Notes under the pieces: generated by a model | Told to the model about the DNA's origin: nothing | The model's input: the letters and a program-made list of their open reading frames with translations, nothing else | Databases searched by the model: none | Part shown: positions 10,637-47,587 of the stretch, in pieces | How the letters are laid out: each line of letters begins with the position of its first letter | How positions within the stretch are numbered: position 1 is the stretch's first letter | Position numbers and translations under genes: made by a program | NCBI GenBank assembly: GCA_963700285.1 | Contig: CAVOXA010000014.1 | Span: forward strand, 128,001-192,000 | Length of the DNA: 64,000 nt | DNA from: an uncultured Chloroflexia bacterium | GTDB lineage: Bacteria > Chloroflexota > Anaerolineae > JAAYZQ01 | Reading direction: 5' to 3'

Positions 10637-11884
10637 TCAGTCGCCAGCTCCCGTCCTGATCACCAGCAGCGCCATGTCGTCAAACTGTGCTGCCCCTGCT
10701 TGGAACTGGCCGACGCGCTCAAAAACCAGGTCACACGCTCCTTGGGCATCCATTGCGCTGGCAGCAAGCATGGTATCCTGGAAACACTTCACCCCAAAGA
10801 ACTCACCAGAGGGCGAGATGGCATCCGTGATGCCGTCGGTGTAGAGGATGAGCAAGTCGCCAGAACCCAGACACACAGCGACTTCCTCAAGTACCACCTC
10901 TTCGACGACGCCCAACGCCATGCCCTCAGCATCCAGGACCTTGCACTCGCCCAGGTCAGCCTGCAAGAGCAGAGGACGATCGTGACCGGCCCTGACGTAT
11001 TGAAGGAGGCCCTGCCCCACATCGAGGACTCCGTAAAAGACGGTGACAAACATGCCAACCTGGCTCATCTCCAGCAGCAGGCAGTTGACATTGAGCAGCA
11101 CGGACCGGGGCGAGGGGTTGCGTTGGGCTTCGGCCCGGATCAAACTCCGGGTGAGGGCCATGAACAGCGCCGCGGCCATGCCCTTGTCCGACACGTCGGC
11201 CATCACCAGACCCACACGCTGGTCGCCCAGGGGGAAAACGTCATAAAAGTCACCGCCTACCTGCCTCGCGGGCCGGTAGCGGGCCGCACATTCCAAGCCC
11301 GGCAGGCGCGGGAATGCGCGGGGCAGGAAGCTGTGCTGGATGCCGCGGGCAAGCTCCAGCTCCCGCTCCAGGCGCTCCTTTTCCACCAGTTGGGCCTGAG
11401 CCTCCTCCAGTTCGCGAAAGGCCCGGGCCAGCTCCTCGTTCTTGCGCTGCAGATCGGCGATCATCTGCTGGTCTGACTCCCGCAGCCGGGCGCTGAGTAC
11501 CTGCATCGTACGGTACATCAACTGGGGCTGTTCCGACAGCAGGGAGTTCATGCCCGCTTCGGAAAGCTCCAGCAGCGTCGTGGGCTCCAGGGCGCGGATC
11601 GTGGCCGAGCGTGGCCGGCCGTCGACGAGGCCCATCTCGCCAAAGATCTGCCCTGGACCGCGTCTGCTCAGGACCATCTCTTCAGCGCCCTGCCCTTTGA
11701 CCACTTCGACCTGCCCTTCCACGATTATGTACACTTCACGTCCGGCGGTTCCCTCCCGCACGATCGTTTGCCCCGGCGCAAAGCTCCGCTCCTGCGCTGT
11801 CTCGGCCACCCATTCTAGCAGCTCCGGTCCAGCACCTTTCAGAAAGGGTACCTGGATCAAGACCTCCCTATCGAGCCTGGTCAT
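10637..11884 (-). CDS. cNMP-binding domain + coiled coil + PP2C/SpoIIE-type Ser/Thr phosphatase
   Basis: FGEMGLVDGRPRSAT cNMP cassette; VGGDFYD, ADVSDKG, YTDGITDA, DDMA PP2C motifs. Confidence 0.92.
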   Translation of the reverse strand: MTRLDREVLIQVPFLKGAGPELLEWVAETAQERSFAPGQTIVREGTAGREVYIIVEGQVEVVKGQGAEEMVLSRRGPGQIFGEMGLVDGRPRSATIRALEPTTLLELSEAGMNSLLSEQPQLMYRTMQVLSARLRESDQQMIADLQRKNEELARAFRELEEAQAQLVEKERLERELELARGIQHSFLPRAFPRLPGLECAARYRPARQVGGDFYDVFPLGDQRVGLVMADVSDKGMAAALFMALTRSLIRAEAQRNPSPRSVLLNVNCLLLEMSQVGMFVTVFYGVLDVGQGLLQYVRAGHDRPLLLQADLGECKVLDAEGMALGVVEEVVLEEVAVCLGSGDLLILYTDGITDAISPSGEFFGVKCFQDTMLAASAMDAQGACDLVFERVGQFQAGAAQFDDMALLVIRTGAGD

Positions 11885-12286: not shown

Positions 12287-15200
12287 TCAAGCCACGCGCT
12301 GCAGGTCCAGCAACCGCCTGCTTGTGTCGCGTTCAAGCTGCCGGCCCACGTACAGGTGCTCGCTGACCAGGCGGTCGAAATCATCTTTGGTTAAGGCCAA
12401 TACGCGTGTCGGCGCCAGGGCCGTGACGGTGGCCGTACGAGGAACTTGAAGCAAGAGCGCGATCTCGCCCACGTACTCGCCTGGCCCGCGCTCAGCAGCG
12501 ACGCGCAGCTCGCCATCCTGGCCCACGGATACCTGTACCCGCCCCGACTCGATGACATAGAAGGTCTCCCCCATCTCACCCTGGCGCATGAGGGCTGCGC
12601 CAGGCTCGTAGGTCTGGGCTTGCAGTTGGGCAGCGACGAGCCGGAGCTGTTGGGCGCCCATCTCGGCAAAGAGCGGTACGCGCCTCAGCAGTTCCACCTG
12701 GGTTATGGAGCGATCCACCTTGTCCCGCAGGGCAAAGCGAGCTTTGACCAACTGTTCAAAGTCGCGGCGGCTCAAGGACAGCAACTCTGTGGGTATTGTC
12801 GTCCGGCATGTGGCGTTGCGCGGGGCATCGTGCAGCAGCGCCAGCTCGCCAAAATAGCCCCCTCGGTCCAGTTGGTTCACCACCTCGGAGACTCCTCGTT
12901 CGTCGCGCTGTGTCACCTCGACGTGCCCGTGCCGGACGATGAAGAACCGGTCCCCGCGCTCACCCTGGCGGATGACGGCCCGGCCAGGCCCGTGGTGCTC
13001 TACCCGCAGGCGGGAGCAGACCAGGTCAACCTCGGCACCGTCCATGGTAGCGAAAAGGGGCATGCGCTGCAGCAGGCGCCTGTAATCCTGCTGTACAGTC
13101 TGAAAGTCAGCACTCAGGCTCTCGGCCCGCTTTACCTCGCGGAACAGGTATTGGACTCCGATCTCCCGCTCCTCCCAGGGCAACCCATCGTAGGCCCGCT
13201 GCAGAGACCGCACCGCCAGCTTTTCCCCTACCTCCTCGGCGGTCAGGTCCAGGAGCAGCCCCAGCACGGCAGCATAGATCTCGCCCTGCTCGATGAGGGG
13301 GCGCTCCGAGACTGTGGCCTCCTCGACCTGCCCTGCGACGATGCTCACCGCCCAGCCAGCGGCCAGGGCATAGTTGTTGAAACGCTCCACCAGGTTGCGG
13401 GCAGCCCGGTCGCCGGCAATCTGGCGGAACTGCTCCACGAGGTCGGACACAGTCCAGCCCAGGGCCCTTTGCAGACGGCGCCCGTCGCTCAGGTCAACCA
13501 CGGCCCTGGGTTGGTCGCTCAGGAGGGCGATGGACCTGAAGGCCAGGTGGTGGAGCAAAAGCCCTCCAGCCAGGAGCAGATAGGCAAGCAGCGGAACGCG
13601 GCCGGTGAGCGCCGAGACCGCCATTCCTCCCAGGCTGAAGATCAGCAGCGTCCAGGCCGGACCAAAACTCGTCCGCCAGAAAGAGACCAGGGTAGGCGCC
13701 ATCAGGGCCAGTGTCAGCAGCGGGAGCAGCCAGCCGCTGACGGTCAACAGCGCCCCGGCAACCGTAGGGCTGGCCTGCTGCTGTCGCGCGACCAGCCACA
13801 ACACCAAGCCGTAGCTTCCCGCCAGGCCAAGGACCAGCAGGGCCTTTCCCATCCGGCTCATCTCTTTGAGCTTCGCGCCGGAAAACAGGAGGAGGCCGGC
13901 CACGGCCAGAGCGCCATAGGCCAGGTAGGCCAGACCGATGGCGACAGGTGCGACGAGAATGGGCAGCACAGGCTGCCCTTCTTTCACCGCAATCGCCCCG
14001 GTTCCCACAAGTCCGATCAGCACAAGACTCGGCACAAGAGCCAGGGAAAAGAGCCCTATCAGCCAGAACACAGGCGACAGGCGGGATCCTGCATAGTCGG
14101 AAGCAATGCGCCAGGCGAGAAAGGCGGCAATGCTCAGAGCAGCCACGCCGATAACCGGGGTCAGCGCCCGGTAGGATAAGGCAGCAGGTACCAGGCTGAG
14201 CGCGACTGCGGCAGCCAGGAGCAAGGCAGCCACATTCCAGGGGTTGGCAAAGAGGCCCTTCCGGGCCGCCCAGAGCACAACCTTGCGGACCATGCTTAGC
14301 AGGGCCAGGCCGATGGATAGGACCAGGAGCAGGCTGAGGGCCGCCAACCCCAGGGCAAGCAAGATCCTGCCCACGCCGCCGCCCCGAGTCCACAGGTCGC
14401 GCAGCGCCCCAGCCAGCCGCCGCTGCCAAAAGTAGGCGCCCATCAAGATGGCGTAGGCGGTCCAGGCCGCCGACAACAGGCCAAAGACAGTAAAGATCTT
14501 TTCCTCGCGGGAGAAGGAGGGCAGGACGCCTTTAGGGCTGGCCGAGACTTCGGAAGTCTTGGAGACTTCCGAAGTCTGCTCTTGCCGGACAGCCTTGACC
14601 TTTTCCCACAAACCACCCCGGATAAAGGCCAGCGATTTGCGCCGCAGCATGGGGATGTCGAGCCAGTCCATGAGCAAGTAATAGCCATCCAACTCTAGCA
14701 GGGGATTGAGGTTGAAAAAGACCGTCAGGTAAGACAGAAAGGCGAACTGGAAGAGCAGGGGGTTCAGCGCGAAGGCAGGCCAGAGAAAGAGTACGATACT
14801 GGCCAGGCCTCCCAGGATCAGACCCGAGTAAGGGCCCGCCCAGGTGACGGCCAGGCGAGCCCGTTTGCCCTCCAGCCAGATGTCGGTGGTATCCACGAAA
14901 AAGGCGGGCATGCCAAAATAGATCATAAACCCGCCGCGCCGCACTTCGCGCCCATAGTGCTTGACCGTCAGGGCGTGGGCCATCTCGTGGATGAGGACGG
15001 CGAACAGGTTGGCCACGATCAGGCCCATCATGCCCAGCGCGATAGAACCGGCGATGGTCACCACGCCGTACTGTCCCCCGCGCAGGGCCTGGACAAAGGC
15101 ATAAAAGCCCAGTACCGTTACGAGCAGGTAGAGGATCAGCACCGGTCGGGCGAAGAGCAATCCACCGACCCGCCGATAGACACCACTCAACGCGCGATCC

Positions 15201-15682
15201 AGGCCACCGATGGTGAATTGCCTTTGCAGAAAAGACTGCCAGACCCGGGCCAGACGGTATTGGGGACGGCGTCTCAGCAGGCGGCCCCGCACCCGCTGGT
15301 AGACGTTGACCGGCCGCTCGCTGAGCAGCAGGCCAGCTTTGAGCCCCTCTACCAGGGCGGCCACACGAGCAAAGGCAAAGGAACCATATTCAAGAAAGTA
15401 GGCAACGACCAGGTCCTTGACCGTGCGGCGGCCATCCATCCGCTCCCACAAGAAGTGGTCCCGGTCGCTCAGGCGGTAGTAGGTCTTGGTGGCTGGATTC
15501 TTCAAGACATAGTACACGCCATCGCGCCCTGTCAGGCGGCTGGCTATCACGCCCGGCGCCGCCTGGGGTCGGTATTGGGCCATCTCCAGCTTTTCGTACA
15601 GCCAGGCCTTCAGGCCCAGCCAGCCCTGATCGGGCTGGCTGGTCTCTTGCCGCAGCGTGTCCCAGAGGGAGGTTGCTTCCAT
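12287..15682 (-). CDS. Fusion: PqqD/RRE-like domain + M50 zinc metallopeptidase + multi-TM block + two cNMP-binding domains
   Basis: N-terminal YYVLKNP..YYRLS..FLWERMDGRRTV (PqqD-like pattern); HEMAH, AGP, NLNPLLELDGYY (M50); FGELALLHDAPRNAT and VGEIALLLQVPRTAT (cNMP). Confidence 0.85.
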   Translation of the reverse strand: MEATSLWDTLRQETSQPDQGWLGLKAWLYEKLEMAQYRPQAAPGVIASRLTGRDGVYYVLKNPATKTYYRLSDRDHFLWERMDGRRTVKDLVVAYFLEYGSFAFARVAALVEGLKAGLLLSERPVNVYQRVRGRLLRRRPQYRLARVWQSFLQRQFTIGGLDRALSGVYRRVGGLLFARPVLILYLLVTVLGFYAFVQALRGGQYGVVTIAGSIALGMMGLIVANLFAVLIHEMAHALTVKHYGREVRRGGFMIYFGMPAFFVDTTDIWLEGKRARLAVTWAGPYSGLILGGLASIVLFLWPAFALNPLLFQFAFLSYLTVFFNLNPLLELDGYYLLMDWLDIPMLRRKSLAFIRGGLWEKVKAVRQEQTSEVSKTSEVSASPKGVLPSFSREEKIFTVFGLLSAAWTAYAILMGAYFWQRRLAGALRDLWTRGGGVGRILLALGLAALSLLLVLSIGLALLSMVRKVVLWAARKGLFANPWNVAALLLAAAVALSLVPAALSYRALTPVIGVAALSIAAFLAWRIASDYAGSRLSPVFWLIGLFSLALVPSLVLIGLVGTGAIAVKEGQPVLPILVAPVAIGLAYLAYGALAVAGLLLFSGAKLKEMSRMGKALLVLGLAGSYGLVLWLVARQQQASPTVAGALLTVSGWLLPLLTLALMAPTLVSFWRTSFGPAWTLLIFSLGGMAVSALTGRVPLLAYLLLAGGLLLHHLAFRSIALLSDQPRAVVDLSDGRRLQRALGWTVSDLVEQFRQIAGDRAARNLVERFNNYALAAGWAVSIVAGQVEEATVSERPLIEQGEIYAAVLGLLLDLTAEEVGEKLAVRSLQRAYDGLPWEEREIGVQYLFREVKRAESLSADFQTVQQDYRRLLQRMPLFATMDGAEVDLVCSRLRVEHHGPGRAVIRQGERGDRFFIVRHGHVEVTQRDERGVSEVVNQLDRGGYFGELALLHDAPRNATCRTTIPTELLSLSRRDFEQLVKARFALRDKVDRSITQVELLRRVPLFAEMGAQQLRLVAAQLQAQTYEPGAALMRQGEMGETFYVIESGRVQVSVGQDGELRVAAERGPGEYVGEIALLLQVPRTATVTALAPTRVLALTKDDFDRLVSEHLYVGRQLERDTSRRLLDLQRVA
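14545..14577. repeat. REP-like palindrome doublet lying in frame inside the M50 fusion gene
   Basis: AGACTTCGGAAGTCT-TGG-AGACTTCCGAAGTCT, read as QTSEVSKTSEVS. Confidence 0.8.
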
Positions 15683-15698
15683 AAGATGTCCAAGACAT

Positions 15699-15727
15699 CG
15701 AGCCGTCCGCACAGTGCGGACGGCTCG
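15699..15727 (-). terminator. 13-bp GC-rich hairpin between precursor gene and peptidase gene
   Basis: CGAGCCGTCCGCA-CAG-TGCGGACGGCTCG; no clear U-tract. Confidence 0.6.
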
Positions 15728-16201: not shown

Positions 16202-16822
16202 TCAGCGGCGACAACCAATGTCCGCCAGCAGAACTTCTAGGGCCGCGATGTTCCGCTGCTTTCCCGTCCCGCGAAGGGCCCGCGCTGCCCCGGTAAAGTA
16301 GGTGTGTTCTCGAAGGAACTGGAGTTGGCGGCGATACCAGGCTTCCTTACCCAGCCGCACACCGTGCGCCGCCCACTCGGCACGCAGCGCCTCACTCTGA
16401 ACCAGGCCATCCTCCCGCCCCAGGCTATCGAGGTCAGCATCGGCCAGGATCTCTTCTAGGGACGTAAGGGGTCGCTGCGGCAGCCTGGTGGCCAGGATCA
16501 GCCCCTGGACCACGGACACCTGTTTTGGCGTGAAACCAAAGCAGGGCAGGACCAGGACCACGATCTCGGCGCCGGCCCGTTCGTGGTCGTGGTACTGGAA
16601 CAAGAATCCAATGTCATGATAGGCCGCGGCGATTTCGATGAGCCGGGTCTCATCCTCATCCATGCTGCTGGCCGCCGCCAATCGCAGGGCTGCGGGCAGC
16701 ACGTCATCGTTTGTATGGGAAAAGTTGTGGTAGGTCAGTTCCGGAGCCAGTTCGCTTTGCAGGCGGTCCAGCGCATAGCGCTTGGCAGCCTCAAAATCGG
16801 ACTGGCGGTGAGGGTAGCGCAT
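16202..16822 (-). CDS. HD-domain metal-dependent phosphohydrolase
   Basis: YHNFSHT, AAAYHDIG, ADADL motifs; start could be further upstream (ORF to 16909). Confidence 0.88.
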   Translation of the reverse strand: MRYPHRQSDFEAAKRYALDRLQSELAPELTYHNFSHTNDDVLPAALRLAAASSMDEDETRLIEIAAAYHDIGFLFQYHDHERAGAEIVVLVLPCFGFTPKQVSVVQGLILATRLPQRPLTSLEEILADADLDSLGREDGLVQSEALRAEWAAHGVRLGKEAWYRRQLQFLREHTYFTGAARALRGTGKQRNIAALEVLLADIGCRR

Positions 16823-17157
16823 GGCTTCCCGGCCAGCTCCTGCCCACGGCTCTCCGCTCAGAATCTGCCAGCCGGTCACGGCCTCCGGATCCGTTCCCTG
16901 GATAGCCATTGCGCAGGAATGCAGATCATTGGACGCTCACGCGGCAGCCCTCGCCCTTCGCTGCGCATCGACCGCAGTCCACGCATGGGATCCATGTGCG
17001 CTGGAGGGCGCACTTGGAGGCCCGCCCGAGCTTGGCGCAGGAAAGGCACGGGTCTGTGACCCGGCCTGAGGGAATTCGGACGGGCGAGCCGGTGTCATTA
17101 GCCGGCACAGGTGCCGGGGGAGGGAATGCGGCAGCACATGAGTCCGATGCAGGTCTT

Positions 17158-17776: not shown

Positions 17777-18478
17777 TCAATACAGGATCCTTCTCTCCAA
17801 TCCCTGCCGGTCCAGAATCGTGACCCGATGCCCCTCGATCTCGATCAGCCCCTGGTCCCGGAAGGCGCCCAGTACCTTGTTCACCCTCTCCCGGCTGGCT
17901 GCTACCCAGGTGGCCAGCTCGGTCTGGGTCAGGCGGAGATCGATGGCGACAGTCTCATTGCCTTGCTCCCCTTCCTGTCCCTCCCGCCCGTAGCGCTCGG
18001 CCAGCTCCAGGAGCTTGGCCGCTACCCTGCCATAGACGTCGAGAAAGGACAGGCTCTCAACATAGGCAGTGGTATAGCGGACTCGGGCGCTCAGAACCTC
18101 CAGGATGCTTCTGGCCATACCGGGGCAGGATTCCAGGTGCCGCAAAAAGTCGTCTCGGCTCAGGGTCAGCGTCACCGTCTTTTCCATGGCCACCGCCCCG
18201 GCCGAACGCGGCAGGCCGTCGAGCAGTGCCAGCTCACCAAATACCTCACCGGGGCCGTAAACGTTGACCGAAATCTCCTGACCAGACTCGCTGATGATAA
18301 AGATGCGGACCTTGCCCGATTCGATGACGTACAGACTGTGGCCCCGGCCGCCCTTGTGAAAGATGATCATCCCCTTGCCAAAGGTGCGTTTCCCCAGGCT
18401 GCCGGCCAGGGTCTCCAGATTTTGGTCAGAGACTCTGGCAAAGAACGAAACGTTCCGAAGCTGATCCACCTGGGACAT
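17777..18478 (-). CDS. Crp/Fnr-family cNMP-binding transcriptional regulator
   Basis: FGELALLDGLPRSA cNMP cassette; LTQTELATWVAASRERVNKVL HTH with CRP-type R-E recognition residues. Confidence 0.95.
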   Translation of the reverse strand: MSQVDQLRNVSFFARVSDQNLETLAGSLGKRTFGKGMIIFHKGGRGHSLYVIESGKVRIFIISESGQEISVNVYGPGEVFGELALLDGLPRSAGAVAMEKTVTLTLSRDDFLRHLESCPGMARSILEVLSARVRYTTAYVESLSFLDVYGRVAAKLLELAERYGREGQEGEQGNETVAIDLRLTQTELATWVAASRERVNKVLGAFRDQGLIEIEGHRVTILDRQGLERRILY

Positions 18479-25564: not shown

Positions 25565-25591
25565 CCTACTCCTCCCTGTTTGCCCCCTTGT

Positions 25592-32091: not shown

Positions 32092-32175
32092 CCAACCCTA
32101 CTCCTTCCCTGCCCTCACGCACGGTAATGCGTCCAATCCTATCGTTGTCGCAACGCGTTTGCCGACGGGCCTCGC

Positions 32176-33018: not shown

Positions 33019-33066
33019 CAGCTCATCCCTCCTCGATAATTGGCCTACAAGCCCTTCCATGAGGGC

Positions 33067-33106
33067 ATTATAGCACGTTGTCATGGTTTTGTCAATAGTT
33101 TGGACA
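33067..33106 (-). promoter_or_regulatory. Promoter overlapped by three 11-bp-phased repeats (CarH/LitR-like operator)
   Basis: TGTCCAaacta-TTGACAaaacc-ATGACAacgtg-c-TATAAT; 17-bp -35/-10 spacer. Confidence 0.7.
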
Positions 33107-33177
33107 GGTTTCTGGAGTTAAACTTGCATTAAAACTGGGCACAACCTTGACAACCAGCAAGGCATGGAGGTTCTGAT

Positions 33178-33673: not shown

Positions 33674-33723
33674 CCCTGCACACCCTGGTGGCAGCATTGC
33701 AGTGCGCCCTTGTGACAGTTTCA

Positions 33724-34816: not shown

Positions 34817-37800
34817 TCAATGCGGCTCGATGACCACATCCTGCCAGAACCAATTCCTGAGGGAGGAGGCGGGGCTCTTTTTCACCCAGGGCTTGACCAG
34901 CAGATGCCGGCGCATATAGATCAGGGGAAGTATCGCAGCCTGCTCAAGCGCGATCTTGTCTGCCTGCTGATACAGCACCATCCTATCCCGCTGATCTGTG
35001 AGACGCCTGGCCTTCTCCACCAGATCGAGAAACCCCTCGTGCTGCCAGCTCCCTCGGGTCCAGCGGCGCATGCCCACCCGCAGGGGATTGTCCGGGTCGG
35101 CATAGTCGGTGACCCACGCCCCGAGCCACATGTGGGGAAGCTCTTCGTCCAGCATACTGAGATAATTTGCCCAGTCCAGCGATGAGGCCAGGGTGACAGG
35201 AACCTCGAGGCTCTCCTGCCACATGATGAGGGGAACCTCGCCAAAAGGCTCCCTGCCTCGCCACACCGGCAGTTCAATCTCCGGGAAGCCTCGCCCACCC
35301 GGAAAGCCAGCCTCGGCCAGGAGAGCGCGCGCGCGGTTGAGGTCATAAGGCAGGCCGATATTCGGAGAATGACCAGGCATCGTCGGTGGTATTACTCCCC
35401 CGGTGGCCGGAAAATAGTGTCCCCGGAAGGCGACATCCGCCAGCGTCTCCCTGTCCGTAGCCAGGGCAAAGGCCTGTCGCACACGCACGTCGTCAAATGG
35501 GGGGCGGCTTGCATCGAAAGCGATGTGAAAGTGCCCCGGCACGGGGACCGATACGTATTCATCTGCAAGTCGCTGTCTCAGGCCCTCCACTTCTGGCTCC
35601 GGAAACCCCAAGGTCTCCAGGATGTCGAGATCGCCAGCCTCGTACATCTCCAGCTTGCGAGGCCATGCCTCGAGCGGAAGCACCCAAACCTCCACACGAT
35701 CTACGTTGCCTGAACAGAGACCATGATATCGACGATTGCGCGCCAGGACCAGCCGTTCTCCCGGCTGCCAATTCTCCAGCATAAAGGGGCCATTCGTCAC
35801 GATGTTTCCTGCTGCTGCCCAGGCATCGCCGTAGGCCTCCACGATGTGCCGGGGTACCGGCAAGAGGAATGGCAGCAACTGAAGGAAATGGCCGGTTGGC
35901 CGCTCCAGTTCAACAACAAGGGTTGTGGCATCCAGCGCCTGGATCGCCACTTGGTCCGGATCTGTTTCCTGACCCTGGTGGTAGGCCCGGGCTCCCCGGA
36001 TATCGTGCAGCCCCTGTGCAGCGGCCGATCCAGTCGCTGGATCCAGGATGCGCTTCCAGCTGTATTCAAAATCGTGCGCCGTCACCTGGACGCCATCGCT
36101 CCACCACACATCGTCCCGCAGGTGAAAGCGATACTTGCGGCCTCCTCCAGGACCTCCCAGCTCAGGGCCATATCGGGAACGATATCCATCTCCGGGGTCA
36201 GGATCGCCAGCCCGCTGAATAGATGCTGGATCACTTGGGCTGAGTCATCGTCGTTGACCGCAGTCGGATCCAGAGTGAGAAGGACCCCGATGGATACTCT
36301 GAGGGCATGGGGGGCAGGTCGCAACAGGATAGAAGGCTGTGGCCTTCCTGCCTTTTGCCACATGGCGAAACCGTCGTCGTAGGCCTGGCGGGCCTGGCGA
36401 AAGTCAAAGGCATTGTGGTGGGTCAGGCCCAACTTCATCAGCGTCCGGGCTGCCTGCTCATGGTCCCCACGCTCCTTGAGAAAAGCCAGCGCCCGCTCGT
36501 AGGCGCGGATCGCCTCCGGATGGGCGTACAGACCCCGCGCCCTGTCCCCTGCCTGGAGCAGATACCCCACAGCTTCGCCGCTGCGCCCGGCCAGCGCCAG
36601 GTGGTCGGCGATCAGACCCGTGTACTCGGCAACCCGCTCCCCACCCTGCTCCAGCAGCCAGTCGGCGACCAGGCCATGGTACACCCGCCGCTCCCGTCTC
36701 AATACGCTCTCGTAGCTGATCTCCCGCAGCATGTTGTGCTTAAAGATGTACTCCTGGGCATCCGCAAAGGTGGACGTCTCCCGCTGGAAGACCAGCTCTC
36801 TGCCCCGAAGAGCCGACAACTTTTCCTCCACCTCCGCGTCCGTTATCCCCTCACCGGCCGACTGGTTTATGCGGGCCACGGCCTGATCCCAGAACAACCG
36901 CCCCACCACCGACGCCTGCTGCAGCACCGTCCGCTCAACCGCCGGCAGGAGGTCCAACCGGGCCTGCAACACACCGGTCAGGGTGGGCGGCACCCGGACT
37001 TCCGCCAAACGCGCAGTCTCCAGCCGCCACTCCGTCCCACTCTTGACGATCACACCATCCTCAACGAGCATCTTGATCAGCTCTTCGATGAAGAAAGGAT
37101 TGCCCTCCGCCCCGGAGACCACGAGGTCGAGCAGCGCTTTTGGTGGGTGGTCCATCCTTCGCAGGATCTGGGCTACCAAGCGCCGGCTATCCCACTTGGA
37201 CAGGGGATCCAAGTCAAGGCGGCTGTGGAAGGGCTGGCCCTCACCCCAGCGAGGCCGCCGCTCAAAGAGCGACGGGCGCGCCGCACCGACGGTCATCACC
37301 GGCTGGCCTTCCAGGGCCAGGACCAGGTGGTTCACCGCATCCAACGAGCTTTCGTCCGCCCAGTGCAGATCCTCCAGCAGAACCAACACCGGACCCTGGG
37401 CAGCCATGCCCCGGAAATAATCAGCCAGGTTCGCCAGCCCCCGGTTGCGGACCTCCTGGGCATCGCTCAGCACGCCGTCCGGCTGTGGGCTTTCCCCAAG
37501 CTCAAACCCGAGCAGGTAGCCAATGAGATGAGCCGCGCTTTGACTCTCACTGGAGCCGCCCAGGGCCGCTGCCACGCCTGCGTCGAGCTTCTCTCGTACC
37601 TGTGCCGGCGGGTCACTGTCCAGGATCTCGAAGCGAAAGGCCAGCAGGTCACGGATCAGCCGGTAGGGCAGGTTCTGCATCTCCTGGCTGGCGCGCCCCT
37701 TGAAATAGTAAAACTGCTGGGGCAGCAACTCGGACCACAAGTCGAACTCATAGAGCAGCCGCGACTTGCCGACACCGGCCTCGCCGCTGACGGTCACCAT

Positions 37801-38761
37801 CTGCAGCTCACCGTCCTCCATCGCCGTGTAAAAGGCATCCTGCAGGCGCTTCAACTCCGCTTCCCGGCCCACCATGCGCGTCTCTATACCTTCCACGCCC
37901 CGTTCCGGCTTGCGAAAAGCCCTCGCTTTGGCCCGCTCCACCAGGTAGGTCTGGACTGGCACCGACCGGCCTTTGACGTGTAACGGTTCCTGGGGCTGGA
38001 CATCAAAGACGCCGCGCACATGACGGTAGGTATCGTGGCTGATCAGGATGCCGCCCGACGGCGCGTTCTGCTCCATGCGGCGCCGCCAGGTTGACCGCGT
38101 CACCCATGGCCGTATACTCGACCCTGAGATCGGTGCCCACTTCGCCGACGACCACCAGCCCGGTGTTGATACCCACCCGCACGGCAAAGCCCCGGATCCC
38201 GCGCTCCCGCTCCAACTTGATGCCGTACTCCTGAGCCCCTGCGATGATGTCCAGTGCAGCCTTGCAGGCGCGCTCCGGGTCATCCTCGTGGGCGATGGGC
38301 GCTCCGAAAAAGGCCAGGATGGCGTCACCCATCAGCCGAGCAACAGTTCCCTCCTGGCGATAGATCGGCCCCATCAGGACATCAAAGGCGCCATCCATGA
38401 TCTCGAGCCATTCCTCCGGGTCCAGCTCCTCGGCCAAAGCCGTCGAACTCTTGATATCGGAAAACAGAATCGTGACCATGCGGCGTTCGCGGCTCAGGCG
38501 ACCGCGGGTGGCCTGCAGCCGGTCGGCGTACTCTCTCGGTACCAGGCGGTGCAGCCGCTCTGCAACGGCATCGGAAGAGCCACTGGCTTGGACGTCCACC
38601 TCCGCCGCTATCTCGCCGCCGCACACGAAGCAAAAGCGTGCATCCGGATCAGGCGGCAGATCTGTTCCACACTGGGGACATACCAGGGACAGCTTGGACC
38701 CACACCTCATGCAGAAACTAGCGCCGTCAGGGTTCCATTTTTCGCATTGCGAACAGCGCAT
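34817..38761 (-). CDS. Zinc ribbon-class III nucleotidyl cyclase-AAA/STAND ATPase-TPR-peptide-binding (family 5) fusion, copy 2 (frameshifts near 38080 and 36130)
   Basis: CxxC ribbons; ILFSDIKSST, RLMGDAI, YTAMGDAVNLAAR; GEAGVGKS, LEDLHWAD; WSDGVQVTAHDF, PFDDVRVRQA. Confidence 0.85.
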
Positions 38762-38874
38762 CGTACCCCCTCAGCAATGGCAATGCCAGACCGGTCCAAC
38801 CCATTTTACATCAGATCCCGAAATAGGCCAAGGTCCAGTTCCGAAGGCTTGAGCTTGGCGTTCGGCGAATGCCA

Positions 38875-39927
38875 TCACGTCTCATGCAGCCGTGGATCAA
38901 GGGCATCCCGCAGCCCATCGCCAACAAAGTTGAAGGCCAGCGTCAGCAGGGTCAGCGCCAGGCCGGGCACTAGGACCAGGTGCGGGTTGGAGCGAAGGCC
39001 GGGATAACCCTCCTGGATCATGGCCCCCCAGCTTGGCGTCGGCGGGTTCACGCCCAGCCCGATGAAGCTCAGCGCCGCCTCGGCAAAGATAAAGCCGGGG
39101 ATGGCCAAGGTGGCGACCACCAGTAGGGGACCGATGGTGCTGGGCAGCAGGTGCCGAAACAGGATGCGCATCCTGCCCGCGCCGATGGCCCGGGCGGCCA
39201 GGACGAATTCCCGCTCCTTGTGGCTAAGCACCTGTCCCCGGGCCAGACGGGCGATGCCCAACCAGCTCAGCGCCCCCAGCGCGATGAACAAGAAGAGCAG
39301 CCCGCCCAGGGCATTGTTGGCCCCTATGAGAAAGCCGGCAGGACCGGTCGCCCCCTGGCGCGAGAGGGCCTTGAAATAGACCTGGAGCAGGATGATCAAC
39401 GTCAGCCCGGGGATGGCGTACAGAAAATCGACCACGCGCATCAGGGCCTCGTCCGTCCGCCCGCCGCTGTAGCCCGAAACAGCGCCATAGATGACCCCGA
39501 CGGCCAGGCTCACGGCCGTTGCCACAAAGGCCACGGCCAGGGAGACGCGGGCGCCGTAGACGGTCCGGCTCCAGAGATCGCGGCCCAGCCCGTCGGAGCC
39601 AGCAAGGAAGACTGTGCACGCTGGCTGCAAAGGGGTCCCGGCCCAGTGGCATTTCACCAGATGGTCCTCGTCGACACCGTAGCGGGTGAAGGGTTTGGCT
39701 CGACCGTTGGCGGTGTTCAGCGCGGCATAGTCATAAGGCGTGATGCAGGGAGCGATGATGGCCAGGAACACGACCAGAGCAATGAAAAGCGCTCCGGCCA
39801 CGGCCACCCTGTTGCGGCGAAACTGGCGCCAGGCATCTGTTACCGGACCCCGGCCCGTGCGCAGTTGATCCTGAACCCGTACTGCTGCTGGCCCCTCGTC
39901 TGCCATACTCACCAACGCTTCAGTCAT
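38875..39927 (-). CDS. Peptide ABC permease, OppC-like
   Basis: GSDGLGRD, EAALSFIGLG, GDGLRDALDPR. Confidence 0.92.
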   Translation of the reverse strand: MTEALVSMADEGPAAVRVQDQLRTGRGPVTDAWRQFRRNRVAVAGALFIALVVFLAIIAPCITPYDYAALNTANGRAKPFTRYGVDEDHLVKCHWAGTPLQPACTVFLAGSDGLGRDLWSRTVYGARVSLAVAFVATAVSLAVGVIYGAVSGYSGGRTDEALMRVVDFLYAIPGLTLIILLQVYFKALSRQGATGPAGFLIGANNALGGLLFLFIALGALSWLGIARLARGQVLSHKEREFVLAARAIGAGRMRILFRHLLPSTIGPLLVVATLAIPGFIFAEAALSFIGLGVNPPTPSWGAMIQEGYPGLRSNPHLVLVPGLALTLLTLAFNFVGDGLRDALDPRLHET

Positions 39928-40163
39928 GGGTGCGCCCTGGTCATTGCGCTCTGGGTCTAGGACTGGCAGGATCACTGCCACCCTCAACCTAGTCTTTGAA
40001 GAGGACACATGGCAATGCTATCACTGATTGGGTCCCGGGAGTCCCCAGCTTGCTGGGGTTCTTGCCCTCCGGGGACAGTCGCCCAGAGCAGGGCTTTGAC
40101 CTTGGCACAGGCGGACGCCCGGAACCACCACCGAGGGTCATCTATCAGACCAACAGTATCCCA

Positions 40164-41136
40164 TCAGTCGTACCGGATCCGTGGATCCAGCCAGGCGTAC
40201 ATGATGTCGACCATCAAGTTCCCGGCAACCAGGAATAGCGCATAGATCAGGGTGATGCTGGTCAGCAGAAAGTACTCGCGACTGCCGACGCTCTCCACGA
40301 ACTTTCGGCCCAGGCCGTCCAGGGCAAAGATCTGCTCGACGATGAAAGTCCCGGTGAGGACTCCGGCCAGGAGCGGGCCCAGGATGGTGGCCAAGGGGAT
40401 CATGGCGTTCTTGAGCACGTGGCGCAGTAGGACCCATTCCTCGCGCACGCCCTTGGCCCGGGCCGTCCGGGTATAGTCCTCGGACAGTACCTCCAGCATG
40501 CTGGCCCGCAGCAGGCGGGCGATACCGGCCGACAGCCCCAGACCCAGGGCGAGCACGGGCAGCACGGCATGCCGCCAGAAATCGGCCGTCGGCCGCGGCA
40601 GGAAACCCAGGATGTAGGGTGGCTCGGCCCCCCAGAAGGCGATGGGGAACCAGTCGAGGCGCAGGCCCAGAATCAGGATCAGCGCTGGACCCAGGACGAC
40701 GACGGGCATCGACGCGCCCAGCACGGCGAAAAAGGTGGCCGAATGGTCGACGAATGTGTTTCGCCGCCAGGCCGCGATCAAGCCGGCCGGCATGCCGATG
40801 GCGAAACCCACGAGCAGGGCCAAAACCCCGAGTTGGATGGAGACCGGCAGCGTGCGGGCCACCACGTCGTTCACCGTCTGGCCCGGCATGTGCAGCATGG
40901 GCCCCAGATCACCACGCAGCAGGTTGCCCATGTAGGCGCAGGAATTGCTCTGGCCAGAGGCCGGTCCAGGCCGTAGCGCTTCTCCATGACTAGACGGATG
41001 GATCGGGCATGTCCTTCTGGCCCATGGTGGAGAAGGGACCGCCGGGCAGGGCCTGGATCAGGGCAAAGGTCGCCGCGGCGATGGCAAAAAGTACCGGAAC
41101 CGACAGGAGCAACCGCCGGACAATGTGCCGGGTCAC
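40164..41136 (-). CDS. Peptide ABC permease, OppB-like (frameshifted near the 5' end)
   Basis: RHIVRRLL, PGGPF, RTARAKG, DPRIRYD. Confidence 0.9.
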
Positions 41137-43319
41137 CGGCGGGCTGCCTGCTTTGCTTCCCAGTCGATGGTCCAGTTGTGGAAGTGCATGCTGAAGGGAT
41201 CCTCTGGCCCCTGATCGAGCCAAGAGTGCACGGCCTCGATCGACATGTCCACGGTGAGGGGGATGAAGGGCAGATCGCCCTCTGGGCCGAAAAAGCCCTC
41301 TTCGATCTGGCGGTAGAGCGCGATCCGGCGGTCCGGGTCTGGCTCTTCCCGCGCCTGAACGATCAGATCGTCGAGCGCCCCACATTCCCGGCCACGCGCC
41401 GGCATTGTGCCACTCTTGCACCACAGCACATCCCCAACCCAGTTGTTCTCGTCAGGATAGTCGGCGGCCCAGCCCATCGTCCACAAGTGGGGCCGCGTTT
41501 CCGCTGGCCCCCGAGCGGCGTCCATCCGCTCGCGGAAGGACAGTTGCTCAACCTGGATCATTTCCGGGCTGCAGCCCAGGTGTTCCACCCATTGGGCCTG
41601 CGCGTATTCACCGTTGGGCAGCGCATCGGGGCCAGGACCGATCATCAGCGTCACCTGGGGAAAGCCGGCGCAGTCCGGGTATCCAGCCTGAGCCAGTTGC
41701 TCTCGAGCGAACTCGGGATCGAAGCCGACCCCACCTCGTAGATGGGCGGGGCGCCAAAGATGCCCGGAGGGGCAAAGTGCACCATCGGCAGGCCTGACCC
41801 TGCATCACCTCCTCTGCGAGGGTCTGGCGGTCAAAGGCCGCGTTAAAGGCCCGACGCACATGCACATTGTCGAAGGGCGGCTTGTCGCGGGCGAAGCCAA
41901 GATAGAGCACCGCCGGATCGGGCACCGGATCCCCTTCGTCCGGGAACTGCTCCAGGTGCGCCTGCAGCTCCAGATCCGGGATCCCGAGACATCCACCTCA
42001 TTGTTGAGCCACAGGGCATAGCCGGTGACTCAGGTCGGGCACCACTCTGACCACGGTGCGCTCGATGTTGCCGCTACCGCGCAGGTCCTGGGGCATCAGC
42101 GGGTTGCGCCACAGGCTGCTGCGAACCCCACGCTGCCACTCGTGCAGCACGAAGCGGCCGTTGGTGACAATGCTTGCCCGGCTCTATCCAGGCTTCGCCG
42201 TGCTCCTCGACGGCCCACTGAGGCGTCGCCGCCAGCGTCCACATGGGCGTCATCGACAGAAAGTAGCTGGCCGGAAACGCCAGCTCGATGACCAGCGTGT
42301 CGTCCGCCGGCCCGGACCCCGATGGCCTCGACCAGTTCCGGCGGGATCGCAGCCGGATCTTCCGCGTACAGGACCTCTTCGCAGCCTTTAATCAGGGGCG
42401 CGACCACAGCGCTATAGTAGGAACCAACGTCGGGATCGCAGGCGCGCTTGATAGCGTATGCGAAATCGTGGGCCGTAACGGTGCGGGGCTTGCCTGCCTC
42501 GTCCAGCACTTGCCTCGTCTCGCCCGTGTCCGGGTCGTGGCGGACCCAGGGGATGTCGGTGCGCAGCTTGAAGGTGTAGACCAGGCCGTCGTCGCTGACC
42601 TGCCAGCTCTCTGCTACCTCGGGTACGAGCTCGAGCGTCTCTGGATCCCGGTCGGTGAGGTTCATGAACAGGTTTTCGATTTCGTCGAACGAGACCACGT
42701 CGCTGGCCAGTTGAGGGACATGGGCCGGGACGTCGGCATACAGCACGGCCTCGCAGCCCTTGATCAGCGGCGCTACCACGCTGCTGTAGTAACTGCCCAG
42801 GTTGGGATCGCAAGCGCGCTTGATGGCGTAGGCGAAATCGTGGGCCGTCACAAAGCGGGGGTTGCCCGCCTCGTCCAGCACCTGCTCCGTGTCGCCCGTG
42901 TCCGGGTCGTGGCGCACCCAGGGGATGTCAGGCCGCAGCTCGAAGGTGTAGACCAGGCCGTCGTCGCTGACCTGCCAGCTCGTAGCGGCCTCGGGCACGA
43001 ATTCGAGAGACTCCGGGTCGCGGCTCGTCAAGCTGACAAACAGGTTCTCGACAAAGTCGATCGAGCCCGCGTCATCGGCCAATTGCGGATCAAGGGTGGA
43101 GATCTCTGTGGTACGATAGCCATCAAAGGTCACAGGCTCCTGCGACGCCGACGGCGATGGCACGGCCGTCAGAGCGGGCGACGGAGCCTGCTCTCCGGTA
43201 GATGAAAGTACTGCAGTCTCCCCCAGGACCGCCGGCTCCGGGGTCGAAGCGCAGCCGGCCAGTACCATTGCCGCCAAGATCAAGGGCAACCGCAAACTTG
43301 GGTATCTCCTCTTTATCAT
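41133..43319 (-). CDS. Peptide ABC substrate-binding lipoprotein, OppA-like, with an internal 372-bp duplication (frameshifted)
   Basis: Lipobox LAGC; SDDGLVYTF/VTAHDFAYAIKR present twice; PFDNVHVRRAF; GWAADYPD. Confidence 0.85.
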
Positions 43320-43461
43320 CTCTTCCTCTTTCCAGCTCAGATTCCTACTCGAAAGTCTCAGAGAAGCGCCGAGACCGGCCAGTGTTCAGTGACGAATGGC
43401 CAAGGGATAGTGGGCCATCCCATGTCCATCCTCCCCCATCCACCGCTCCTGCTTCCTCCCC

Positions 43462-46400
43462 TCAGTGCGGCTCGATGACCATGTCTTTCCAGAAGAACGC
43501 GCCCGACGCCGACCTGGGGCTGCTCCGGACCCATGGCTTGACCAGCATATGCACCCTCGGGTAGGAGAGGGGTAGGAGGGGCACCTGCTCGACCAGGACA
43601 AGTTCTGCTTGAGCGTACAGCGCCATCCGCTCTGCCAGGTCCATGGCACGCCGTGCCCGCTCGATGAGGGCAAAGTACTGCTCTTCGCGCCAGGCCGTGG
43701 CGCGCTGCACCGCCACGCGGAGGTAAGTATCCGGATCCGGGTAGTCAGGCCCCCAGGCCACCAGAGTCAGGTGAGGTGGAGCGTTGCGGACCCGGTTGAT
43801 GAACTCGGCCCACGGTAGGACCTGGTAGCCGATCTCTACCCCCAAGATCTCATGCCACTGCGCCTGCAGGTGCGGGGCCTGGGCCCGGAACCCAAGAGGT
43901 GCCAGCAACTCCACCTCAGGGAAACCCCTGCCGCCAGAATATCCGGCCTCTGCCAGGAGTTGCCGGCCACGCTCTGGGACGTACGGCAGGGCGATACCCG
44001 CCGAGTGTCCCGGCATGCCAGGCGGCACAAGCCCGCCGGTAGCCGGCTGGTAGTAGCCGGCGGAGGTGACGTCGACCAGTCCCTCCCGGTCCAGTGCATA
44101 GGCAAAGGCCAGCCGCACCCGGAGGTCGTCAAAGGGCGTGCGTGTCAGATCAAAGGCCAGGTAGCGGGTTAGCACCCCGGGTTGCGTTATGTAGTCCCCT
44201 GCCAACCTCCGCCGTACCCGATCCGCCTCTTTCGGGTCGTCAACATCCAGCCCGATGATATCCAGAAGATCGGCCTCGTACATCTCGAGAATAGAACGCC
44301 AATCCCCTAGGAGACCCAGCGGCAGCTCCACTCGTTGGACGTTGCCGCCGAACCGCCCGTGGTACCGCAGGTTGCGCACAAGTACCAAGGAGTTGCCCCG
44401 CTGCCATGAATCCAGTCTAAGGGGCCCATTGGTGAGGATGTTCTCGGGCTCCGACCAGGCTGAGCCCAGTCGCTCAACGAGGTGGCGAGGAACCGGATAC
44501 AGGGCGCTGTAGCTCAGCAGTGGCAGAAGGTATCCCGTCGGCGCCTCAAGCTCCACGGCGAGTGTGACGTCGTCAATGGCCATCACACCCAGGCCATCCG
44601 ACTTGGAGACGTGTCTATTGTGGTATGCCTTGGCCCCCTTTATGTCGTATAGCAGGCTGGCATTTCGGGATTCACTCGCAGGAGCCAGCACGCGCTTCCA
44701 GGCGTAGACAAAGTCATGGGCTGTCACCGGCACCCCGTCACTCCAATAGGCATCAGCCCGCAGGCGAAAAACAACCCTGCGCCCATCCCGGGAGACCTCC
44801 CAGCTTGCAGCCACGTCAGGCACAACGCCACCGTCATAGGTGAAATCCACCAGCCCACTGAATAGTTGTTCAACGAGATCGAGGGAACCCTCGTCAGTCG
44901 CGAATGCTGGGTCCAGGGTCAGCGGGTCAACGCCTGGCTCCCTGAGGGCATGGGGTGCAGGCGGCAGCGAAGCGGCAGTGGCGGCCTCTTCCGCACGGCG
45001 CCAGAAGGCAAAGCCCTCGTCATAGGCCAGGCGGGCCTGCTGGAAGTCAAAGGCCGCATCGTGCGTCAGCCCCAACCGCATCAATGTGCGCGCCGCTTGC
45101 TCATCCTCTCCTGCCTCTTTCAGGGACACCAGCGCCCGCTGGTAATAGTCCGTCGCCTCCTGGAGGGCATAGGCAAGCCTCGCCCGATCCCCTGCCCGCA
45201 ACAGGTACTCTGTCGCCTTCTCGACGTCACCGGCTCGCTCCCAGTGGTAGGCCAGCAAGCCCACCTGCTCCTCCACCCGCACGTGGAACAGTCGCTCTAG
45301 CGCCTCGGCCACCTGCCGGTGGAAGACACGCCGGTCTTTTATCAATAGTCCGTTGTAAGCTGCCTCCTGGGTCAGCTGGTGCTTAAAGATGTACTCCAGA
45401 TCCGGCAGCCGCGCTCTCTCACGTATCATCTCTTCCCGCTGCAGCGTCTGCAGCTCAGCGTGCAAATCGCGTTCCTCATGGGCGAGCTGCGTCAGCACCC
45501 GGCACAGAAAGAGCCGCCCGATGACCGCCGCCATCTGCAACACCCGCTTCGTCTCCTCCTCCAGCCGGTCGATGCGGGCCGCCAACACCCCCTGCAAGGT
45601 GTCTGGGATTGCGATCTCGCTCACCTCCCGCGCCGCCAGCCAGCGACCTGTCCCTACCTCTTGCTCGATGGCTCCCTCATCGATCAAGGAGCGCAGTACC
45701 TCCTCCAGGAAGAAGGGGTTGCCCTCGGCCCGGTCCAGGATTCTCTCCTTAAGCTCAGGGGGCAGGCATTCCATCCACAGCAGGTTTCCCACCAACCGCC
45801 CACTCTCAGCCTCGGACAGGGGATCAAGCCACAGATCGGTGTGCCGCTGTCCGTGGTCCCGGGCAGCCGTTTGCCTCAACTGCCAGGACTTGTGCGACCG
45901 CTCCGGGCGGAATACGCAGACGATCAACAGCGCGTGCCCTTCGGTGACGGCCAGCAGCTTTTCCAGCAACTCTATCGACGTCGGGTCCGCCCAATGCAGG
46001 TCCTCCACGACAAGCACCAGGGACCTTTCCCTGGCCGCAGATGCAACCAGCGTCTCCACAGCGCGGAACGTGGCAGACTTGAGCTCCCGGCCATCCAAGT
46101 GGCTCAGCCTGGCCTCCGACTCTTTTTCCAGTGGTAGGGACATCAGCGCGGCCAGGAAAGGGTAGACCTCATCAGACTGCTCAGGGTACAGGGCCTGGAC
46201 GCGTCCTCGCAGGGCATCCCCGACATCCACAGGACCGTCCCCCACGCGCACTCCCAGCAGCCCTCGCAGCAGATCGAGCCAGACAAGATAGGCCACGGAG
46301 CCACCGTAGGACAGACAGCGGCCCTCGACCCATTGGACCCAGCCTTGTGAAGGCTCCTTCGCAAGGCTTTGCTTGCGCAGCTCCGCCACCAGCCGTGACT

Positions 46401-47405
46401 TGCCGATCCCGGCTTCGCCTACGAGGGTCGCGATGCCGCCCGCCCCGGTCTGCAGGCGGTCCAGCGCCTCGGTCAGGGCAGCCAACTCTTCTACCCTACC
46501 CACCAGCGGAGAATCCAGCCCGGCGATGCCACGCAGCTTGCCGGGGGCATCCTCTGGCGCCAGCACCCGGTAGACGTCGACTCGCTCCATCCGGCCCTTG
46601 ACCTCAATTGGCCCTAGGGCCTCCGTCTCAAATAGAGGCGCGACCAGTTTGTGGGTGGCCTCACTGATCAGCACCGTGCCTGGCTCCGCCGCCGACTCTA
46701 TCCGCGCCGCCAGGTTCACCGCGTCGCCCATGGCCGTGTACTCGACCCGCAGGTCCGAGCCCACCTCGCCCACGACGACCAAGCCGGTGTTGATCCCCAC
46801 CCGCACGTTGAACCCCTGGACCCCTCGCTCTCGCGCCAGACGCGTTGCATAGTCTTGAGCACCCGCGATTATGTCCAGGGCAGCGCGACAGGCCCGCTCC
46901 GCATCGTCCTCGTGGGCAATCGGCGCGCCAAAGAAGGCCAGGATGGCGTCGCCCATCAGCCGGGCCAGCGTGCCCTCGTAACGGGTTACGGGCTCGATGA
47001 GGACGTCAAAGGCCCCGTCCATGATCTCCATCACGTCTTCCGGATCGAGTTCTTCGGCCATGGCCGTCGAACCCTTGACGTCACAGAAGAGGATGGTTAC
47101 CGTGCGCCGCTCACGGCCCACCTGGCCCCGCGAAGCCAGCAACCGCTCGGCGTACTCTTTGGGCACCAAGCCGTCTCAGGAGGCGGCCGCCGTTGGCCTC
47201 AGGCGCAGGCCGCGGTTCGCAGCCAGGGCTGCGCCAGTACCTAGGGCGGATGGGCAGCACGGTTCGCGCCGCAGTCAAGACAAAACCTGGCCTGGAGGGG
47301 CAGCTCAGTGCCGCACTGGGCGCAGATCAGACCAGCCTGGACCCGCACTTCAGGCAGAACTTGGCGCGTTCGGGATTTTCGGTGGTCGCAGCTCGCACAC
47401 TGCAT
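43462..47405 (-). CDS. Zinc ribbon-class III nucleotidyl cyclase-AAA/STAND ATPase-TPR-peptide-binding (family 5) fusion, copy 1 (frameshifts in N-terminal ribbon)
   Basis: Continuous 1235-aa ORF joins ILFCDVKGST/RLMGD/GDAVNLAARIE, GEAGIGKS/VEDLHWAD, GNPFFLEE and WSDGVPVTAHDF..WGPDYPDP. Confidence 0.9.
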
Positions 47406-47558
47406 CTCAACCCTCCGATCTGCGTAGCGGTTTGTGCGAGATTATCGGTACAAAGACATCTCGCCTTTCGCGCCAGTCTTCGCCACGATAAGCGTGTGAC
47501 GGTAGCGACAGAGGCCAGGTGTCCCTGGTTCTGGCCCAGAGCGAAGAACCCCTACTCG

Positions 47559-47587
47559 ATTATAGAACAGATGAACAGATTTGTCAA
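47559..47587 (-). promoter_or_regulatory. Consensus sigma70 promoter of the cyclase-Opp operon
   Basis: TTGACA-17-TATAAT on the minus strand. Confidence 0.75.

Follow-up and report, generated by a model that had tools for sequence, protein, structure and literature searches.

Cyclase-STAND proteins with an OppA-type domain as putative intracellular receptors of uncultured Anaerolineae

What do two large proteins sense that join a class III nucleotide cyclase to a STAND ATPase and to a peptide-binding domain of periplasmic type, and is it the cargo of the oligopeptide (Opp) importer whose genes they enclose? The question is raised by a stretch of 64,000 nucleotides from an uncultured Chloroflexota bacterium of the class Anaerolineae (assembly GCA_963700285.1, contig CAVOXA010000014.1, positions 128,001 to 192,000; hereafter the window), in which genes A and B lie on either side of oppA, oppB and oppC, all on the minus strand, in the order cyclase-oppA-oppB-oppC-cyclase that the initial annotation of this DNA had given. 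We favor, with a probability of about 65%, the reading that both genes code for intracellular receptors in which an OppA-type clamp acts through the STAND switch on the cyclase, whose cyclic nucleotide monophosphate (cNMP) would be read by receptors encoded in linked genes.

Gene A is a single open reading frame (ORF) of 1235 amino acids (aa) with a Guanylate_cyc domain at residues 22-195, an AAA_16 domain at 221-417 and a substrate-binding protein (SBP) domain of the SBP_bac_5 family at 782-1152. Its fusion is genuine, as claimed from the first reading of the DNA: a frameshift artefact is ruled out by the homologs, in which the TPR-SBP junction lies in one frame in 78 of 78 cases. The switch appears intact throughout the family, since over 118 aligned members the Walker A Lys (K257 in gene A) is present in 116/116, and the Walker B Asp (D390), Arg421 and the Gly of the GxP motif each in 118/118; gene A also has G224/R225/E228 and G483/P485. 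The cyclase retains its catalytic residues, namely the metal-binding D30 and D74 and the transition-state residues N152 and R156, again as first read. The proposed cytoplasmic location withstood scrutiny as well: gene A reaches a hydropathy maximum of 1.62 over 19 residues and has no transmembrane (TM) segment, none of 120 homologs reaches 2.0, and a hydrophobic N-terminal core occurs in 1 of 77 full-length homologs. Homologs place the real start of gene A by tblastn at about 47405, not at 47169. The promoter consensus noted in front of the cluster is present, against a background of 5 sites in 14.5 kb versus 2.3 in shuffled sequences; among the sequencing runs listed, no RNA run contained the locus, and DNA shares were at most 0.09. 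Gene B shares the design of gene A (79% identity in the cyclase, 36% in the STAND and 50% in the SBP domain) and is spread over three frames (38761-38081, 38079-36124 and 36139-34817, with breaks near 38079 and 36143), its catalytic Arg sitting just beyond the first break. The description of the pair as two diverged paralogs thus holds for their common design and has to be amended in that gene B is split and the genome holds at least five STAND-TPR-SBP5 genes.

An AlphaFold model of the STAND-TPR-SBP part (mean predicted local distance difference test 92.4, predicted TM-score, pTM, 0.90) predicts a single, fixed packing of the three domains, and the lower pTM obtained with the cyclase included (0.71) is fitting for a looser tether of that domain. 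The modelled SBP domain is closest to the closed, peptide-bound OppA (8ARE, TM-score 0.91; 0.62 for the open form 4TOZ), a comparison to be read with the tendency of AlphaFold to render SBPs in the closed state. The fold is intact, and the OppA anchors are kept, with an equivalent of Asp419 in 101/118 rows and of Trp416 in 109/118, and Gly415 kept as well. Around these anchors the pocket is hypervariable. Sites of at least 3 bits make up 19 of 27 pocket positions, 31 of 453 other SBP positions, 7 of 172 in the STAND domain and 0 of 118 in the TPR, where the pocket consists of positions that we take to line it in OppA structures, mapped to the fused domains by HMMER alignment; 15 of them were fixed before the entropies were viewed (mean 2.71 versus 1.63 bits) and the others added afterwards, so that the count over 27 sites is in part post hoc. 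At 50-60% identity outside the pocket, fused domains agree in 12% of pocket positions (427 pairs) and exported ones in 34% (45 pairs), and at 60-70% the values are 0.14 and 0.42 (4 exported pairs), a contrast inflated by an exported control set richer in orthologs. Paralogs share 0-21% of the pocket. Between the genome of the window and another genome of the same genus (G305), two of three ortholog pairs keep it (19/19 and 17/21 sites), and the gene B pair has changed at 9/20 pocket sites versus 73/454 elsewhere (p 0.003). From these alignments we infer that the pocket is functional, with ligands that are specific to each paralog and have occasionally been switched.

The architecture is by no means confined to this locus. 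A search with residues 560-1235 of gene A gave 1666 matches among 7997 candidates, 679-2162 aa long, for part of which the fusion was verified; the best 120 matches carry SBP_bac_5 in 120/120 and a cyclase in 85/120. Genome and metagenome scans yielded 154 loci, 75 of which hold 78 TPR-SBP fusions. Family records come chiefly from Anaerolineae and other Chloroflexota, with single records from Desulfobacterales, Fidelibacterota and Gemmatimonadota, and clusters of this architecture are also present in the ESM Atlas, commonest in Actinomycetota. The fusion occurs in 9/300 genomes drawn from the whole phylum, with three candidates per genome scored, and was matched at 1e-90 in 9/30 closer relatives. 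Both ends of the protein are exchangeable. The 78 fusion genes have a cyclase as effector in 35 cases and a SARP-type BTAD domain and/or a Ser/Thr kinase in 25, the remaining 18 being cut or unassigned; 27 non-cyclase N-termini comprise 17 BTAD, 3 BTAD plus kinase, 5 kinase and 2 unassigned. At the sensor end, among 67 newly found full-length proteins closely related to the cyclase form, 24 have an SBP domain and 43 lack it, many of the latter being annotated with TPR arrays. Because these SBP-less sister proteins have a TPR array at the same place, the SBP domain can be regarded as taking the sensor position on a STAND chassis.

In an unrooted FastTree phylogeny of 85 SBP domains, 49 fused domains (a subset, as short rows and rows without a located start were dropped) fall on one side of a branch with support 99 and 36 exported ones on the other; effector types are intermixed among the fused rows, and the oppA of the window is among the exported. 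The tree thus indicates that the fused domain is one lineage, separate from exported SBPs. Identities in the STAND domain are correlated with those in the TPR (r 0.95) and far less with those in the SBP domain (r 0.33), and one G305 copy is a mosaic in which a STAND of B type precedes an A-like SBP domain. A co-opted cytoplasmic sensor is supported, therefore, by the intact fold, the kept anchors, the position taken from the TPR array and the single fused lineage. The family is large and apparently unstudied: a literature search found no paper on the STAND-SBP_bac_5 fusion, which supplements of earlier STAND surveys may list. Two or three SBP_bac_5 domains seem to be present in P0001, P0005, P0006, P0008, P0010 and P0018, multiple ones being displayed for P0001, P0006 and P0010, with P0006 reading BTAD-kinase-STAND-two SBPs. 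Tandem arrays of 2-4 STAND-TPR genes, nearly all with a cyclase and none with an SBP domain, occur on the metagenome contigs L140, L160-L162, L174 and L185.

Which nucleotide the cyclase would make depends on its base site, where R70 of gene A aligns with the Lys of Pseudomonas aeruginosa CyaB; the initial annotation had rightly noticed Arg in place of the usual adenine-specifying Lys. The Thr145 base contact is kept and Arg70 replaces Lys, so that the canonical contact set of adenylyl cyclases is incomplete. The Arg is a stable character rather than an oddity of this genome: it was found in 50 of the 85 cyclase-bearing matches (Lys in 30, Glu in 1, 4 uncovered) and marks a conserved clade in 79/84 new cyclase matches, while 34 genes from the loci have Lys in 15, Gln in 9, Arg in 7, Asp in 2 and Glu in 1. 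In the cyclic CMP (cCMP) synthase EaPycC, F100, R142 and Q144 are required for activity (PMC11224242). Counted in register from the two metal Asp, not by alignment to EaPycC, F28 and R70 of gene A agree with these contacts and M72 replaces Q144. The CRP proteins beside Arg-type genes have Thr-Thr where GlxR has Thr-Asn, and PMC11224242 gives Ser/Thr at the CRP contact position as a mark of cyclic AMP (cAMP) binding and Glu for a cyclic GMP (cGMP) binder. We regard cAMP as the probable product of the Arg-type cyclase and cCMP as a considerably less likely one; another or mixed product would be surprising, and so, to the same degree, would an inactive enzyme. At loci L099 (6339-7959) and L107 (14504-16166), a Gln/Leu-type cyclase-STAND-SBP gene is followed by one joining a cNMP-binding domain (cNBD) to a PP2C phosphatase, with Glu at CRP-128 and a changed phosphate-binding Arg, which may point to a cGMP channel and hints at matched channels. 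The base-site pair is reversed (Glu, Lys) in L041, a Desulfobacterales record, and in P0089. Asp at CRP-128 of the receptor, tried as a marker of the Arg type, stands beside Arg-type genes in L039, L078, L093, L104, L129 and the window, but also beside the Lys-type gene of L035, and was discarded.

Genes for cNMP-binding proteins are the recurring neighbours of the cyclase-bearing members. They lie within 3 kb of 13/24 cyclase forms and of 0/15 BTAD or kinase forms (Fisher p 0.0004; background 1.6%), counts in which kin are not independent, and 10 of those 13 are on the same strand, at most 2 kb downstream. Elsewhere the commonest downstream neighbour of cyclase-type members is a cNBD-PP2C gene. 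G305 has the order nitroreductase, gene B ortholog (immediately after the nitroreductase gene), CRP, HD-like protein, protease-cNBD, second cyclase-STAND-SBP gene and cNBD-PP2C, and homologs of these receptor genes are found in the window (Table 1). The protease, of 1141 aa, has about 12 hydrophobic segments and daptide/YydH-like matches below cut-off, and genes of its type are also found next to cyclase-STAND genes and CRP in L039, L097 and L131. By its domains it looks like a cNMP-regulated peptide-processing protease, which could make or destroy the ligand of the sensors. Between gene B and the CRP gene, the window (18840-34372) holds two DUF1722 genes, staygreen, a DNA photolyase, a carotenoid-type oxidoreductase, DegV and DUF1295; parts of this block are on another contig in G305. 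On the other side, at 55468-58971 (+), lies a gene for a 1167-aa secreted-type nuclease with lamin-tail, OB-fold, DUF11 and exonuclease/endonuclease/phosphatase domains.

Table 1. Positions of the cluster and of the putative receptor genes in the window
Feature	Position	Strand	Description
Promoter consensus	47559..47587	-	Predicted sigma-70-type TTGACA-17-TATAAT, 12/12, about 150 nt upstream of the gene A start
Gene A, 5' end	47170..47405	-	Double zinc ribbon in a different frame from the long ORF; two indels; from tblastn of homologs
Gene A	43462..47169	-	Class III cyclase (base site Arg70/Thr145)-STAND NTPase-winged helix-three TPR-like hairpins-complete OppA-type SBP_bac_5
oppA	41133..43319	-	Exported-type lipoprotein, lipobox seen in sequence; duplicated 5' part, frameshifts
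oppB permease	40164..41136	-	Frameshifted near 40935-40955
oppC permease	38875..40008	-	Start uncertain
Gene B	34817..38761	-	Double zinc ribbon-Arg-type cyclase-STAND-TPR-SBP_bac_5, split over three frames
CRP/GlxR-like transcription factor	17777..18478	-	Likely receptor; in G305 the next gene after the gene B ortholog
Probable HD-domain protein	16202..16909	-	In the cNMP block; weak matches only, HD label from motif
Protease with cNMP-binding domains	12287..15712	-	Likely receptor; PqqD-like domain-HExxH intramembrane metalloprotease-many TM segments-two cNMP-binding domains
cNBD-phosphatase	10637..11884	-	Likely receptor; cNMP-binding domain-SpoIIE/PP2C phosphatase

These elements suggest a mode of action that, for nucleotide exchange and oligomerisation, follows MalT by analogy. 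At rest, the protein would be an ADP-bound monomer with the open clamp packed against the STAND-TPR arm. The ligand is likely a short peptide or another amino compound, predicted to differ between paralogs, and imported peptides are possible. Closure of the clamp on it would release the STAND switch, allowing exchange of ADP for ATP and oligomerisation, which would bring the tethered cyclases together in head-to-tail pairs, as class III cyclases must pair to be active. The cNMP produced, most likely cAMP, would then drive transcription by CRP, the PP2C phosphatase and the intramembrane protease of the linked block.

Several points weigh against this receptor reading. To the limits already given with the closed model, the pocket figures and the linkage counts are to be added the loss of OppA Arg413 in the fused domains and the 11/24 cyclase forms that have no receptor gene within 3 kb. 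The receptor link, moreover, belongs to the cyclase and not to the SBP domain, because STAND loci without an SBP also carry cNBD genes (6/30), and for the window it rests on G305, because the three receptor genes here (10637-18478) are 16-24 kb past gene B. Finally, the frames of gene B, oppA and oppB are interrupted in the present assembly. The loss of Arg413 would suit a domain that binds no ligand and serves as a rigid autoinhibitory lid or a protein-docking module, its pocket variable from lack of constraint; so would the fast-changing pocket of one of the three ortholog pairs, and pocket sites are no more variable than the most variable sites outside the pocket. Such a lid would hardly be expected to retain the full two-lobed fold and the buried Asp419, Trp416 and Gly415, nor to conserve the pocket at least as well as the remainder of the domain in the two other pairs, and we consider it improbable. 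The broken frames could likewise mean that the locus is decaying in its source organism, with gene B, oppA and oppB as pseudogenes and gene A deprived of its zinc ribbon, as at least 10 indels within 12.7 kb might suggest. The duplication inside oppA would agree with decay: about 350 nt (window 42420-43320, minus strand) are present in two copies that are 80% identical, too different for an assembler copy, and the same-genus ortholog is single-copy. Contigs of related strains, however, differ from the window by indels at 36143, 38077-38081, 40935, 40955, 41982, 42030, 42173, 42314, 47328 and 47384, and over 3.7 kb the DNA sequences of gene B and its same-genus ortholog share 84% identity. The breaks are likely assembly errors rather than marks of pseudogenes, because the related contigs lack the indels and the paralogs at three other places of the same assembly are also in shifted pieces; true decay would be a very remote explanation.

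Two further alternatives concern what the receptors are for. The initial annotation had made genes A and B dedicated sensors of the cargo of the enclosed OppABC, acting as one unit with the importer. The shared strand, gaps of only 142 and 113 nt, the one strong predicted promoter upstream and the OppA/MppA type of the fused domain plead for it, as do Opp genes near the fused gene in L123 and L125 and directly beside it in 2/10 further loci (L191 and L198, both from one family). Across the family, however, 0/28 homologous genes that have both flanks have an Opp permease at up to 3 kb, and 2/20 have one at up to 8 kb, at the level of the genome backgrounds of 5% and 9%; Opp permeases occur anywhere in the locus in 3/75 fusion loci, and an Opp permease stands beside the fused gene in 0/10 additional loci, many with short flanks. 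None is near three other paralogs of the window's genome, no oppD or oppF was seen in the cluster, and the adjacent OppA groups with exported proteins (on a long branch, its exact place unsure), for which reason it was rejected as donor of the fused domains. In G305, which lacks a close gene A ortholog (best match 57%), the orthologous oppABC genes are on a separate contig, with no cyclase within the 17 kb fetched. Coupling to the enclosed importer is thus unsupported, because Opp genes are at background level, absent near the other paralogs and on a separate contig in G305, and homologs without an Opp association are what the initial annotation had itself named as refuting its proposal; on the same grounds we also reject co-location with Opp as a family trait, and the cyclase-opp-cyclase sandwich is particular to the window's genome among the genomes seen. 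Of the original proposal that imported peptides are sensed by a co-opted OppA domain on a STAND protein, the cytoplasmic sensor survives and the tie to the neighbouring importer does not, so that a single unit with it appears unlikely; a weaker form, in which the ligand is a peptide brought in by any Opp system, is possible and compatible with the receptor reading. The genes oppC-oppA-oppB stand head to head with a cyclase-STAND-SBP gene at L191:3765-11043 and L198:950-8234, and two other genomes of that family have no divergent opp set in the stretches fetched. The window has a second oppABC set at 2784-7084 (+), after a sensor kinase and a LuxR-type regulator and syntenic in L039; genes for cytochrome c, a Rieske protein and cytochrome b come next.

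The proteins might otherwise be NLR-like immune receptors, whose variable clamp would detect peptides or metabolites of invaders and trigger defence through a cNMP, possibly cCMP as in Pycsar. The STAND-TPR design, the hypervariable sensor with its burst of pocket changes in the gene B pair, the expansion of paralogs, the mosaic genes, the register of R70 with EaPycC R142 and PADLOC matches to PycC and PycTIR profiles would all suit such a role. By contrast, SARP, kinase and cyclase serve as effectors and CRP and PP2C as receptors, and TIR, nuclease or pore domains are not among them; the 92 nearest neighbours include no recurrent family recognisable as defence; the linked CRPs have Thr at the cAMP-contact positions; and the PADLOC matches are limited to the shared cyclase and cNBD folds. 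In Pycsar, a cyclase forms a two-gene unit with PycTIR or PycTM, whereas the neighbours here are CRP, cNBD-PP2C and cNBD-protease, and the proteins also differ from antiviral STANDs (Avs, bNACHT, CARD-NLR) in their signalling effectors and neighbours and in having no PADLOC match on the STAND part. A role in immunity seems to us a poor fit. We give somewhat more credit, still as a speculation, to an Anaerolineae repertoire that is NLR-like in build, with the OppA clamp in the place of the leucine-rich repeats, a conserved STAND chassis, exchangeable outputs, a pocket under diversifying selection and separate cNMP channels, in which the Arg type would make cCMP for CRP and PP2C receptors; the base-site types of the family are Lys/Ser, Arg/Thr, Gln/Leu and Glu/Lys.

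The preferred reading, that of a clamp controlling a STAND-borne cyclase, combines features of several known systems. SWACOS STANDs, a clade of cyclase- or kinase-fused proteins reportedly delineated by Leipe and colleagues in 2004, have hhGR-x-x-E before the NTPase, Walker A, Walker B, a sensor Arg and GxP. The present proteins have this motif set and share with them the N-terminal class III cyclase or Ser/Thr kinase, the AAA_16-type STAND, the winged helix and the TPR after the NTPase; they differ in that the TPR array is reduced to three hairpins, after which comes a complete OppA-type clamp, and in having SARP/BTAD effectors too. Mycobacterium tuberculosis Rv0386, Rv1358 and Rv2488c are described as cyclase-STAND-TPR chassis with a C-terminal LuxR helix-turn-helix (HTH) where an SBP domain stands here. 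The SWACOS name is in use for the STAND clade in PMC7159879, PMC8195603 and PMC13236601. The TIGR03903 model (TOMM kinase/cyclase fusion) covers residues 16-695 of gene A (E 3e-86), yet at 290.3 bits against a cut-off of 705.75 gene A lies outside that family. No solved STAND structure matched gene A in sequence, and the Foldseek lists were filled by SBP or cyclase chains. Cyclases CyaB of P. aeruginosa (3R5G) and Cya2 (2W01) share the fold (TM-score 0.85-0.90), the two metal Asp, the Asn and the Arg, and CyaB also the Thr base contact; Arg here replaces Lys of CyaB and Glu of Cya2. With EaPycC the cyclase has in common an Asp-Asp spacing of 44 and a Phe(-2)/Arg(-4) register, and it departs from the contact set of Pycsar clade E in having Met for Gln144 (PMC11224242).

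Exported OppA, MppA and DppE (8ARE, 1OLA, 3O9P and 8AY0) have the same fold as the fused domain (TM-score 0.87-0.91, 25-28% identity) with Trp416 and Asp419 equivalents; the fused domain differs in having no signal peptide or oppBC link, in the lost Arg413, in a far more variable pocket and in its separate lineage, and gene A scores 186 against a cut-off of 947 for the NCBIfam OppA model. SgrR and Vibrio cholerae DsvR likewise use an intracellular SBP_bac_5 as C-terminal part of a regulator, with the HTH fused directly, without STAND or TPR (bioRxiv 10.64898/2026.04.01.715812); the SBP domain of gene A is far nearer OppA/MppA than SgrR, has no SgrR profile match and stands in another architecture. 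Escherichia coli MalT is a cytoplasmic STAND signalling hub switched by an imported or endogenous small metabolite via ADP/ATP exchange and oligomerisation (PMC10427625). MalT senses through SUPR/arm domains, has a C-terminal DNA-binding effector and is tied to its transporter, whereas here the effector is N-terminal, the sensor is SBP_bac_5 and no Opp link is conserved. What appears new, judged by these comparisons, is an OppA-type clamp as the sensor of a cyclase-STAND protein; the MalT-like working, the SWACOS chassis and a cytoplasmic SBP as in SgrR and DsvR would be known.

Databases name these proteins as parts of ABC transporters, and a large class of putative cytoplasmic receptors of uncultured sediment and soil bacteria is thereby being overlooked. 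To our knowledge, few small-molecule ligands are known for STAND proteins, with MalT as the model. The sensor described here is predicted to be a stand-alone, well-folding clamp, which could be used for ligand fishing with the cyclase as a direct read-out. The combination of variable pockets, a fixed chassis and exchangeable outputs would make the family a natural modular set of biosensors. The Arg variant, for its part, bears on whether cyclic pyrimidines serve outside phage defence: if the Arg type makes cCMP, a cyclic pyrimidine would act in the ordinary signalling of these bacteria.

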